In this document: one piece after another, positions 12,401 to 30,400 of the stretch
How positions within the stretch are numbered: the stretch's first letter is position 1
Layout of the letters: each line of letters starts with the position of its first letter
Assembly (NCBI GenBank): GCA_951406725.2
Contig: CATOCA020000001.1
Span: forward strand, 5,580,001-5,644,000
Direction of reading: 5' to 3'
Origin: Octopus vulgaris
Taxonomy: Eukaryota
DNA: 64,000 nt
Translations under genes and position numbers: made by a program
The notes under the pieces: model-generated
Told to the model about the DNA's origin: nothing
The model's database searches: none
What the model saw: only the letters and a program-made list of their open reading frames with translations

Positions 12401-15400
12401 AGTTCTCAAATTGTATAACCTCAGCAGAATTTTACACCCTCAACCAACCTTCTAAACCTTGTTACTCTCTGCGATTTTACGGTCTTTCTTGGTTACAAGA
12501 CCACATCCATAGAAACCGTGATTATGGACCCTATGTTACAGTATGGTCGAGGTGGTATTGTTTTTGCTTCATTTCATAGGAAACACTATGTTGTGGAACA
12601 TTTCTGTATACGTATTTGACACTAATTAGATGTATTTCATAAAGTACTGCAGATATATTTTCAATGAGGTGACATCAATGATCATTAGTGACAAATGTGG
12701 TAAAGCAGTGATGATGGAATGGGGTCTGAGCAGGGTTTCATATTCCTTGTCACGTTGTTTTCATATTAACTATGACAACGGAAAGACAGTTTCTGTCAGT
12801 TAAATCTTTCTACAGGGGTGTATATTTTGTCTCCTACGATTTCTTTGTAAGTGGAGTTTTTTCAGCCCATTCAGATGCACTACATTGATTAAGGGGACAT
12901 CAAAGAAGGGATGAATGTTTGATTGATATATAGAAGAGGGTTGTCAGAGATATCCTATCCAAGATTCTGTTGAACAGTAACGCAGGAAATTAAAACTAAT
13001 AATTACCTGCAGCAATCATCATCATCATTTAACGTCCGCTTTCCATGCTAGCATGGGTTGGACGGTTCAACTGGGGTCTGGGGAGCCCGAAAGCTGCACC
13101 AGTCCAGTCAGATCTGGCAGTGTTTCTACAGCTGGATGCCCTTCCTAACGCCAACCACTCCGAGAGTGTAGTGGGTGATTTTATGTGCCACCGACACAGG
13201 TGCCAGACGAGGCTGGCAAACGGCCACGCTCGGATGGTGTTTTTTATGTGCCACCGACACAGGTGCCAGACGAGGCTGGCAGACGGCCACGCTCGGATGG
13301 TGTTTTTTATGTGCCACCGACACAGGTGCCAGACGAGGCTGGCAGACGGCCACGCTCGGATGGTGTTTTTATGTGCCACCGACACAGGTGCCAGACGAGG
13401 CTGGCAGACGGCCACGCTCGGATGGTGTTTTTATGTGCCACCGACACAGGTGCTAGATGAGGCTGGCGAACGGCCACGATCGGATGGTGTTTGTCATGTG
13501 CCCACCGCACTGACTACGGCATTGATGGATTTCTTGTGTGCCACAGGCACTGGTACCACAGGCACTGGTACCACAGGATACAAATTCCATTGATGTTCAT
13601 CTATTTTGTCTATTTTGATTTGATTTGATTTTCACTTGCCTTCAACCGGTCTTCACAAGTGTCACAAGAAGGAAGGTATGCAGAGGTGGACTGACTAGTC
13701 TTGCAGGGTCTTCGGAAGGTGTTTTTATGTGCCACCGACACAGGTGCCAGATGAGGCTGGCGAACGGCCATGATCGGATGGTGTTTGTTACGTGCCCAAG
13801 GCACGGAGGCCGGTCGATGCGGAACTGGCTACGGCCACGTTCGGATGGTTCTCTTGTGTGCCACCGGCACTGGTACCACAGAGTGTGTGCCACCGGCACT
13901 GGTACCACAAAGTTACAGATTCCATTGATGTTCATCTATTTTGATTTGTTTTGATTTGATTTGTATAGCAAAAAGTGCACGTGCTCTTCACGTGGAGTGT
14001 CATGTGTTTGTGGCTAGACCTTTAATGGCCAAATTGCTTGACATTGGAATTAAGCAAAGATGGGAATAATGTTGGTTAGTGAAGGGAATTTTTGCGATGA
14101 CAATGTCACGTCATATATTTAGCACAACCATAAGAACGAAGACAAAAGCAATTAAAGGACAGCGTCATCATGTGATAATTAAATGAAATAATGACAGAGT
14201 TGTTAGGTTACGTAGAATGCCTTAAAAGATAAAAGAAATTTAGAAAGGTAATCTATTTCGTTGTAGACTTAAATATTGAGTTATTACATGGTTAGCCTTT
14301 TGAAAATAAAAATGCAAACTAAAACCATTCTGTTGAACAGTTGATCATCGATGAGAGAAATGTCTGATAATAATAAAATATAGATTATTAATAAAGAAAC
14401 AGATTTGTTATTATAACATTTAAAACTTGGGAAATATTAATTTCAGGGAGTCAAATGTTTGCAGAGAAGGAAATTCAGACAGAGCCAGAACCAGTTCGTG
14501 AGTATAAAATTATAGCATCTAATTGATTTCTATTAGGTTTATCTTCAACTGAACTGTTTTGTTTGACAGAATGAAGAAGAGTAGGTTCCATTCCTAATTC
14601 CCTTGGTCAGCATGGTTGATAAAATGGAAAATAAGTGTTAATATTGTGTTTTCGAACACAAAACTAAAATATCTTGTTCATGTGTAAACACGTATTTTTA
14701 TGATAACTTTTTTGTTTCTTTTGCTTTTAAGTTCTTTACAAAGTTTCCCGATAGTTTATTGTTGTTTGTGCTGTTGTTGAGTGTTGTCTAACCAGATGTC
14801 TATCTTAACATGTTGTCTTTTGTTGGGGTATATACCCCAAATTACTTTGGTTGGAATATTTATTATCGACATAAATTGAAACAATAGAATATTAAATCTC
14901 TATGAAGATATTGATCATTAAATTATTTTTATTGAATATTAAATTCAGTTGTGAACTGTGAACATTTGCTTGACATTGGAATTAAGCAAAGCTGTAAATA
15001 ATGCTGGTTAGTGAAAGGCATAGATTTGATGACAATGACATGTCATATATTTAGTACATGTATAGGAAAGGAAACTAATAAATGAATGATATTATCACGT
15101 TATAACTAAATGAAATAATTGCAGAGTTATTTGATTATATAGATAAAGGAAACTGAGGAATGTTAGTCTATTTTGTTGTAGGCCTAAATATTAAGCTATT
15201 ACATGGTTACCCTGTTAAAACTATAAATAATGTTGACTAAAACTACTGTGTTTGTCAGTTTATCGACGAAAGAAGTATCGGATAATAATAAAATATATTT
15301 TATTATATATATGTTATTATAACATTTAAAACTTGGCAAATATTAATTTCAGGGAGTCTGATGTTTGCAGAGAAGGAAATTCAGACAGAGCCAGAACCAG

Positions 15401-27400: not shown

Positions 27401-30400
27401 ATTAGGTGTAAAAAATTTCTATTAATATATTTTCTGTCTACACACGGATCATTGCCAACTACTGTCAATGTACGGTTTAAAGAACGGAATAGCAACACAC
27501 ACAGCGAATAGACTACCGCGATGGGGCACTACTAATGATTGGATTATGACTACAGAATGGAATATTTACCGTAAGGAAAAAAACTATGGCATGCGGTTGG
27601 TTTTTCCAGGCTGATACAGAAACACTGCGATCCATTGGAAGATACGGTAATCCCAGCTCTAAGAGCAGAAAGGGGAATCAAAAATGTAATGTGGAATGTG
27701 GTACGCAAATTACCGGTAACCCTAGAAGTCATAAAGAGAAATGCAGTAAAAGACAAATTCCTAACAGGAGTGATAAGAACACTGTTGTTTAGGAAAAGTA
27801 ACTAGGAACAGGATTGGTGTGAAAGGAAACCAGGACATGAATTTATACTCAATTTGTGATGGTGTAATGATATATGCACAGCGATTACTGATGCCTGAAA
27901 CACCACAAAAGAAAACGTTGAGGGAATTTTATGTTGGACATTCTGGTATTTCGTGGACGAAATCCTTAATACGTAGCTTCATGCACTGGCCCCAAATGAA
28001 CAGGGAAATCGAACATTTCGTGAAAGGTTGTAGAAGATGTACTCTAGTATCCAAATTAACGACGATGAAATGCGAACCCTGGCCAAAAGTAGATATCCCG
28101 TGGGCGAGACTACACATTGATTTCGTTGGTCCTTTAAACGGTTCTTAATACTTAGTGGTAGTTCATAGTTTCTTTAAATGGCCAGAAACTTGTAAGTGTA
28201 ATAAACGAATCTCTTCAACAGCAACAATTTTTATACGAACAGTTTGCGAGATTTGGCATGTCAGGCGCGCGAGTGTCTGACAATGTAACGCAATTTGTGT
28301 GTTTTGAATTTGAAAGATTCTGTAAAACGTTTGCTGTAGAACATGTTACTATAGTGCTATTCAATCCTAGATATATCGGACAAACAGAACGCTATGTCGA
28401 TATGTTCAAAAGAGCCCTAAGAGTGTCGAATAAGGGAGTCACGGATGAAGTAGCTCCACAAGAGTTCTTAAGAGTGCACTGTGTGACACTAAATCCAAAT
28501 ACACCAGCTGGAGCTGATGATTGTGCAACCAGCGGGGCTGACGTTTGCGACGAAGATATAATGAGTCTTCGACATATTTTTACTGGGCAAGAAGAAACAA
28601 ATTACAAGGGAATATACAGCAAGGTTTTTCAAAGTTGGTGAAAAGTAATTTGTGGGGGCATATGAAAACGGAAAATAGAGTTGGGAAGAAGGTGTGATTA
28701 TCAAACGCATCGGTAAAATGCTATCTTTGATAAAAAGTAGAAAAGGCGAATATAAGATGACATTCTGATGAAGTGCGAAGCAGGGAGTTAAAAGTAAAGA
28801 TTGCCAGCAGTAATGTTTAGGAAAGAGATCAGGCAGGTGTATTCTTATCCTACTTGAAGAGGTGTGTCTTGTGTTTGTAGGTAGAACTTTAATGGCCAAC
28901 TTGGAATTAAGCAAAGATGGGAATAATGTTGGTTAGTGAAGGGCATTTTTGCGATGACAATGTCACGTCATATATTTAGCACAACCATAACAACGAAGAC
29001 AAAAGCAATTAAAGGACAGCGTCATCATGTGATAATTAAATGAAATAATGACAGAGTTGTTAGGTTACCTAGAATGCCTTAAAAGATAAAAGAAATTTAG
29101 AAAGGTAATCTATTTCGTTGTAGACTTAAATATTGAGTTATTACATGGTTAGCCTTTTGAAAATAAAAATGCAAACTAAAACCATTCTGTTGAGCAGTTG
29201 CTCATCGATGACAGAAATGTCTGATAATAATAAAATATAGATTATTAATAAAGAAACAGATTTGTTATTATAACATTTAAAACTTGGGAAATATTAATTT
29301 CAGGGAGTCAAATGTTTGCAGAGAAGGAAATTCAGACAGAGCCAGAACCAGTTCGTGAGTATAAAATTACAGCATCTAATTGATTTCTATTAGGTTTATC
29401 TTCAACTGAACTGTTTTGTTTGACAGAATGAAGAAGAGTAGGTTCCATTCCTAATTCCCTTGGTCAGCATGGTTGATAAAATGGAAAATAAGTGTTAATA
29501 TTGTGTTTTCGAACACAAAACTAAAATATCTTGTTCATGTGTAAACACGTATTTTTATGATAACTTTTTTGTTTCTTTTGCTTTTAAGTTCTTTACAAAG
29601 TTTCCCGATAGTTTATTGTTGTTTGTGCTGTTGTTGATCGTTGTCTAACCAGATGTCTATCTTAACATGTTGTTTTTTGTGGGGGTATATACCCCGAATG
29701 ACTTTGGTTGGAATATTTATTATCGACATAAATTGAAACGATAGAATATTAAATCTCTATGAAGATATTGATCATTAAATTATTTTGATTGAATATTAAA
29801 TTCAGTTTTGAACTGTGAACATTTGCTTGACATTGGAATTAAGCAAAGCTGTAAATAATGCTGGTTAGTGAAAGGCATAGATTTGATGACAATGACACGT
29901 CATATATTTAGTACATGTATAGGAAATGAAACTAATAAATGAATGATATTATCACGTTATAACTAAATGAAATAATTGCAGAGTTATTTGATTATATAGA
30001 TAAAGGAAACTGAGGAATGTTAGTCTATTTTGTTGTAGGCCTAAATATTAAGCTATTACATGGCTACCCTGTTGAAACTATAAATAATGTTGACTAAAAC
30101 TACTGTGTTTTTCAGTTTACCGACGAAAGAAATATCGGAAAATACTAAAATATATTTTATTATATATATGTTATTATAACATTTAAAACTTGGGAAATAT
30201 TAATTTCAGGGAGTCTGATGTTTGCAGAGAAGGGAATTCAGACAGAGCCAGAACCAGTTCGTGAGTATAAAATTACAGCATCTAATTGATTTCTATTAGG
30301 TTTATCTTCAACTGAACTGTGTTGTTCGACAGAATGAAGAAGAGTTTCATTTCTAATTTCCTTAGGAAAGCTTAACTGTTGTGTAATTCTATTAAAGATA

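Follow-up and report, generated by a model that had tools for sequence, protein, structure and literature searches.

Tandem micro-exons encode a likely multivalent LC8-binding linker in an Octopus ankyrin-RING-death family labelled MIB2-like

What do eight near-identical micro-exons contribute to the protein that contains them? The question is raised by a 64,000-nucleotide (nt) stretch of the Octopus vulgaris genome (the window; assembly GCA_951406725.2, contig CATOCA020000001.1, positions 5,580,001 to 5,644,000, or C31:5580001-5644000 in our working locus numbering, prefix G000; loci named C27 and C29 lie on other contigs of the same genome). A preliminary description of this DNA had noticed eight tandem micro-exons between a RING and a death domain, each encoding a K-x-I-Q-T motif that might bind the hub protein LC8. 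Our analysis points to a likely multivalent LC8 client in which every site has an exon of its own and which belongs to a mislabelled family of Octopus proteins. On balance we think it probable that a linker exon found throughout the family was recently expanded in tandem to give these eight, and that its K-x-I-Q-T motif likely binds LC8, which would zip two chains into a parallel ladder.

Eight motif exons and the protein around them

Eight predicted 51-nt phase-1 exons on the forward strand splice in frame between the RING exon and the death domain. Each is flanked by a ttaatttcag acceptor and a gtgagt or gtaagt donor, the sites being canonical in 8/8 cases, and an open frame runs from an ankyrin exon via the RING exon, a 51-nt linker exon, the eight motif exons and a 48-nt linker exon to the death-domain exons (Table 1). 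Splicing of the eight exons in silico gave a 136-residue repeat with KEIQT in five copies and KGIQT in three, reproducing the linker sequence of the preliminary description, whose placement of the array between RING and death domain agrees with the exon structure, splice sites and open frame found here.

Comparison with Pfam identified the RING (zf-C3HC4_3, expectation value (E) 3.4e-9) and the ankyrin repeats (E 1.6e-11). The last death-domain exon matched weakly (E 5e-4, under the curated cut-off); the death domains of relatives pass the cut-off and have a predicted fold of six helices. Eight zinc ligands in C3HC4 spacing are present in the RING exon, and six of the cysteines are invariant among 32 relatives. 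The exon is 100% identical to one Octopus vulgaris-labelled protein; its identity to numerous O. vulgaris and O. sinensis proteins called 'MIB2-like' is 81-98%. A 'linchpin' Arg usually follows the last RING cysteine; because the window copy has Gly at this position, its E3 activity is not assured.

Outside the window, earlier ankyrin exons are located upstream at distances of ~0.9 and ~7.5 kb. A search of the 50 kb upstream did not recover the first two ankyrin exons of the gene, and since a 100-N assembly gap sits at that place, their absence was not taken as a sign of a pseudogene. A candidate exon at 37418 was rejected, as it has no Pfam match and relatives splice the 72-nt exon straight to the last death-domain exon.

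Table 1 Features of the ankyrin-RING-death gene in the window (positions are those of the window)
Feature	Position	Strand	Basis or remark
Ankyrin-repeat exon	3250..3459	+	Pfam, open frame
Last ankyrin exon, degenerate	6031..6209	+	Ank_4 E 0.011
C3HC4 RING exon (zf-C3HC4_3, IAP/MIB type)	9104..9246	+	Pfam
51-nt linker exon, same family, degenerate motif EVQM	10619..10669	+	Spliced also in RefSeq O. sinensis models
Four tandem ~4.95-kb units, last one partial	13994..33343	+	96.9-98.2% identical; exon A, exon B and decayed retroelement pieces in each
Motif exon A1, AEKEIQTE	14447..14497	+	Sequence; peptide used in complex model
Motif exon B1, AEKEIQTE	15353..15403	+	Sequence
Motif exon A2, AEKEIQTE	19412..19462	+	Sequence
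Motif exon B2, AEKGIQTE	20318..20368	+	Sequence
Motif exon A3, AEKEIQTE	24368..24418	+	Sequence
Motif exon B3, AEKGIQTE	25274..25324	+	Sequence
Motif exon A4, AEKEIQTE	29304..29354	+	Sequence
Motif exon B4, AEKGIQTE	30210..30260	+	Sequence
48-nt linker exon, same family, degenerate motif ATKT	35088..35135	+	Present also in nearest paralogue's model
First death-domain exon, 72 nt, helix 1, homologous to linker exons	35986..36057	+	Sequence comparison
Last death-domain exon, one base shorter in A-run than nearest paralogue, last helix curtailed as assembled	38552..38721	+	Pfam, comparison

The motif across the Octopus family

By sequence comparison, the host belongs to an expanded Octopus ankyrin-RING-death family that carries the label 'MIB2-like' by similarity only and is mislabelled. 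Like Mind bomb (MIB1/MIB2), its members have ankyrin repeats followed by a zf-C3HC4_3 RING, and the last ankyrin stretch of the relative P0055 matches MIB1 weakly. Unlike Mind bomb, which carries N-terminal Mib/Herc2-ZZ-Mib/Herc2 and REP domains and two or three C-terminal RINGs, full-length relatives have a single RING and no match to Mib/Herc2, ZZ or REP: profile scans of six family proteins returned only ankyrin repeats, one RING at most and mostly a death domain. Membership of Mind bomb was rejected on the lack of a Mib/Herc2-ZZ-Mib/Herc2 or REP match and the presence of at most one RING in these six, the 5' end of the window gene itself lying past the assembly gap. P0055 also matches the cIAP1/2 and XIAP RINGs and the ankyrin, RIPK1, PIDD, RAIDD and TRADD death domains at E 2e-8 to 0.03, its match to the cIAP and XIAP RING chains being weak. 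Unlike IAP-type ligases and death-domain adaptors, the octopus family has no BIR or kinase domain, and its RING is internal.

A word-index search for relatives gave 14 matches, in which every fully legible name was Octopus. Ten of 150 listed representatives were named, all ten of them Octopus, and the remaining matches were mostly through the death domain alone. A search of the ESM Atlas gave no usable match.

The motif is a recurrent feature of this family. A search of the octopus genome with one motif exon returned 40 scored matches of 49 candidates. In paralogous exons chosen solely by their splice flanks, the corresponding position reads VKETQT, DKETQT, DKASQT, DKAVQT, DKEVQT, EKEVQT, EKGVQT, DRCVQT and DKCVQT, together with broken forms that include KASQR, KEMKT and KAVKT, and the motif occurs in proteins of three species (O. 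vulgaris, O. bimaculoides and O. sinensis). Three motif-blind pattern searches of the genome, counted by hand over exon copies that are not independent, found intact K/R-x-(T/V/I/S)-Q-T in 25/39 exons (plus five with MQT), in 45/51 and in only 21/61. Among 52 RING and death-domain proteins, isoforms not being independent, 44 motifs fell within 3,335 linker residues and none within 15,468 other residues.

Arrays are likewise not confined to the window: other family genes carry four to seven exons built from other exon classes, among them a C27 array of seven at a 166-bp period (six of seven intact) and two C31 genes with arrays of six and of five 78-nt exons. Motif number also differs between isoforms, as given by annotation models. 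In O. bimaculoides, the annotated isoforms of one gene contain 4, 3 or 2 motifs, and RefSeq isoforms of single O. sinensis genes have 1-3 or 0-2, the exons being skipped combinatorially.

Some features of these linkers were noted in passing. The six- and five-exon 78-nt arrays (C31:7421965-7433442 and C31:5684734-5693787) encode DRCVQTE and a second Cys, and one pattern found 51 such exons genome-wide. Linker exons at the 166-bp period, with 115-nt introns, lie at C27:23661165-23662235 and at many C29 loci, where the anchor alternates between VQT, VKT, VQA, VKM and others; a Q-to-K change recurs in several unrelated exon classes. In other family members the linker consists of PSTSQHE heptads (P0098) or of CPRCREK repeats with two cysteines (P0078 and P0084).

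To compare positions within the exon, 95 distinct linker exons were grouped into 15 classes at 88% identity. An array-finding pattern that demanded the motif also fed loci into the conservation sets, giving a small bias toward intact motifs. Between classes, amino-acid identity was 0.64, 0.58 and 0.57 at positions -3, 0 and +1, compared with a mean of 0.31 at other positions. These three were the best of all three-position subsets, although positions are not exchangeable and classes are related. All but one of the 15 classes have V, T, S or I at position -1. By these comparisons the motif appears as a family trait that is often kept and often lost.

Fit of the motif to LC8

The position rules in PMC6607443 place Q at 0, branched or hydrogen-bonding residues at -1 and +1, a large or basic residue at -3, a polar one at -4 and P, D or E at +2; AEKEIQTE and AEKGIQTE both satisfy them. 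Individually, the window motifs closely match measured LC8 binders. Among the measured values of PMC12057147 (DataSheet1), AEKGIQTE is bracketed by Pac11 YDKGIQTD (0.62 µM, a close match) and Nup159 AESGIQTD (17.9 µM), and the same source gives ZFPM1 SDKGVQTP at 1.6 µM, Bmf EDKATQTL at 0.7 µM and SON RCVSVQTD at 1.4 µM.

The octopus genome encodes an intronless canonical LC8 of 89 residues, 88-94% identical to named DYNLL1-type proteins. A complex model of two such chains with two copies of the A1 peptide (translated from the A1 exon and its flanking intron sequence) scored 0.65, compared with 0.31 for the best of three controls. Contacts were reproduced between runs to at least 88%, with a predicted local distance difference test (pLDDT) score of at least 54 for the partner. 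In the model, the motif is paired with LC8 residues 62-68, and Q0 is in contact with residue 36; this is the known register. The linker is also predicted to be disordered, a property that the preliminary description had proposed to check: FoldIndex is -0.12 for the window linker, and pLDDT is below 50 over residues 319-388 in the linker of the relative P0002.

The spacing of the sites is compatible with a multivalent array. Each window repeat consists of an 8-residue motif and a 9-residue spacer, a spacer length matching ASCIZ, in which LC8 complexes were homogeneous when linkers measured 6 and 9 residues (PMC10046861, section 4.3). In ASCIZ/ATMIN, Nup159, Chica, KANK1 L2 and 53BP1, as here, several Q-T-anchored 8-residue motifs lie in a disordered stretch with short spacers. 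KANK1 provides a precedent: in PMC12803091, weak sites that bind LC8 only cooperatively form a rod that spaces two domains. Unlike known multivalent clients, the octopus protein carries each motif on its own symmetric exon, its repeats are near-identical, its host is a RING-death protein, and its copy number varies from 0 to 8 between paralogues and also between annotated isoforms. Like the preliminary description, which knew of no such arrangement, a full-text literature search (most subscription journals lying outside its coverage) found no paper on LC8-motif exon arrays in RING-death proteins or on this octopus family.

Several points weigh against binding. Three IQT peptides gave no binding by isothermal titration calorimetry (Table 2 of PMC6607443), and the same paper describes multiple like charges as unfavourable; AEKEIQTE, which holds three Glu, may incur such a penalty. 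One of these non-binders is counted among the AlphaFold false positives in PMC12057147. The mark set for our complex models was reached by 51/78 solved pairs and 2/108 mismatched pairs, peptides lying outside the calibration of the tool, and the A1 model may pass by its likeness to already solved LC8-peptide complexes, so that it shows likeness, not binding. Subject to that reservation, the model supports docking of the motif as a beta-strand in the groove of the LC8 dimer. Binding by LC8 had been the central suggestion of the preliminary description. A motif spread through the family, near-identity to measured binders, the model and the spacer length speak for it, whereas frequent loss of the motif and the 24 of 52 RING and death-domain proteins that lack it speak against it. 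At the level of the family we regard LC8 binding as probable.

Alternative readings and the proposed ladder

The linker exons and the 72-nt first death-domain exon have common acceptor and donor contexts and common 5' sequence. The best pair of linker and death-domain exons agrees at 28/41 bases, compared with a maximum of 24 in 200 shuffles (mean over all pairs, 20.1), and K-x-L-(L/H)-R-V-A in death-domain exons corresponds to K-x-V-Q-T-V-A in linker exons. A duplicate of the first death-domain exon is the likely source of the motif exon, the direction being inferred because the death domain is the older structure. Viewed beside the window exon at 35986-36057, linker exons look like its shortened duplicates, with few single-base changes between the codons for L-L-K-V-A and V-Q-T-V-A.

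Within the window, the array grew by duplication of a larger unit, in which exons A and B lie 0.9 kb apart. Among the copies, 4/102 motif-exon columns are variable, compared with 4.2 expected at the intron rate, and all four alter the protein. Since the units were recently duplicated, such invariance is to be expected: the near-identity of the eight exons reflects recent fourfold duplication, not selection. It was discarded as evidence of selection, and the argument that the preliminary description drew from it carries no weight. The A and B exons of one unit lie in a tract of 95-97% identity that reaches ~100 nt into the downstream intron, compared with 73-88% elsewhere, which suggests conversion or recombination.

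Other sequences in and around these units were recorded. The interval 15700-18950 and the equivalent part of each unit hold decayed retroelement pieces (Pfam matches to reverse transcriptase and integrase zinc finger) that were copied along with the exons, and the public gene model draws a repeated false exon from this intron. The nearest paralogue (L011, C31:8847115 region, minus strand) is a chimeric gene: its upstream intron is of type A, its downstream intron of type B, and its RING exon differs. Elsewhere in the window, a sequence resembling, by eye, a decayed Tc1/mariner transposase lies at 7250-8200 between inverted repeats (6773-7108 and 8204-8543, 88%), and a 4.9-kb AGAA microsatellite array at 46799-51734 is followed by ~10 kb of purine-/pyrimidine-rich simple repeats.

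The best-surviving alternative is that the exons are decaying duplicates of the death-domain exon that lengthen a flexible linker, the QT having arisen once in a founder, being LC8-like by accident or binding to no effect, and drifting since. The homology to the death-domain exon and the neutral variation within the window fit this reading. So does the record of the anchor in trees built without the motif codons, in which pairwise identity and minimum-change counts replaced per-branch ratios of non-synonymous to synonymous substitution. In 62 distinct exons of other classes (47 with intact motifs), positions -3, 0 and +1 required a minimum of 4, 6 and 6 changes, a modest advantage over the 5-12 elsewhere, and at least nine switches between intact and broken motifs were counted. 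In the 166-bp-period class, where six of 33 exons are intact, positions 0 and +1 are the most changed of all (9 and 15 changes), which a CpG in the +1 codon ACG may explain in part. Forty of 61 copies of one subfamily lack VQT, and part of the conservation of K-3 and D/E-4, both common to the death-domain exon, may simply be inherited from it. The anchor itself is harder to derive from drift: Q is found at 0 in 2/11 death-domain exons, T at +1 is not among their common states, and yet both residues dominate in 12/15 linker classes with diverged third codon positions. The motif moreover persists in three species, and several arrays of five to eight consist almost wholly of intact-motif exons. 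We therefore consider a neutral spacer unlikely, though it is the alternative to be taken most seriously. The preliminary description had made QT conservation in paralogous and orthologous exons a test of its proposal; the anchor positions are the best kept across 15 classes and the motif recurs in three species, but it has been lost repeatedly and varies neutrally in the window.

A second alternative accepts LC8 motifs in the family but regards the window copy as a dying gene, or its exons as mostly skipped, leaving no eight-rung ladder. In the last exon the frame ends ~11 residues early, one base short in an A-run, where the three closest relatives keep the longer frame. Two close relatives lack the RING and linker, one of them with stops, and in the nearest paralogue the acceptor of the single homologous exon is GAG. 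The public gene model at the locus (P0030) uses other exons and misses all eight; no protein record with the window's own repeat was returned (two hits among 11 candidates, which is weak evidence), and exons of this kind are freely omitted from the RefSeq models of relatives. Against this, the eight acceptors and donors of the window copy are canonical and its frame is open, and the absence of the first exons coincides with an assembly gap. A consensus error is a plausible cause of the missing base, which falls in a homopolymer: relative to the paralogue, the window has several other one-base gaps that shorten homopolymers, a pattern expected of errors in a sequencing consensus. Decay or wholesale skipping of this copy appears improbable to us.

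That the fourfold repeat is partly an assembly artefact, with fewer true exons, is very improbable: the presence of one exon in the nearest paralogue and the low transition count among units (transitions/transversions 83/98, compared with 31/25 between window and nearest paralogue) leave a small doubt, but each of the six pairs of units is separated by 81-130 substitutions and no more than 6-12 gap openings, 22 variant sites are common to pairs of units, four distinct units cannot come from two haplotypes, and other genes have arrays of five to seven exons at other unit lengths. The repeat is probably real, its units being four distinct versions that differ mostly by substitution.

Returning to an array of LC8 sites as the favoured reading, we propose a model in which each exon would supply one LC8 rung, and LC8 dimers would zip two ankyrin-RING-death chains in parallel. 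IAP-type RINGs need to dimerise for activity. The ladder would hold two RINGs, which precede the first motif by ~20 residues, adjacent to each other, and would display two death domains at its far end, a distance of roughly 30 nm by scaling of the KANK1 value. The ankyrin repeats may be the variable recognition part, and copy number at the gene level, together with exon skipping, would set valence and spacing. The setting would most likely be immune or cell-death ubiquitin signalling. In its fullest form, which we advance tentatively, the model holds that in a large Octopus family of RING-death ligases with ankyrin sensors the helix-1 exon of the death domain was duplicated and became an LC8 module, one exon making one rung; tandem exon gain, substitutions that switch the anchor on or off, and skipping would dial ligase dimerisation and the distance between RING and death domain, and this gene would make eight rungs. 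A working eight-rung ladder from the window copy is itself possible rather than probable.

If correct, this model would show the birth and tuning of a short-linear-motif array, in which the exon of a folded domain became an LC8 site by few base changes and exon-sized steps shift valence between paralogues and isoforms. The family would offer a natural series of 0-8 near-identical sites with a fixed 9-residue spacer for learning how motif number and spacing set LC8 cooperativity, and LC8-controlled dimerisation would be added to the regulation of RING ligases. The locus also draws attention to a large and mislabelled family of octopus genes, whose roles likely lie in immunity or cell death.

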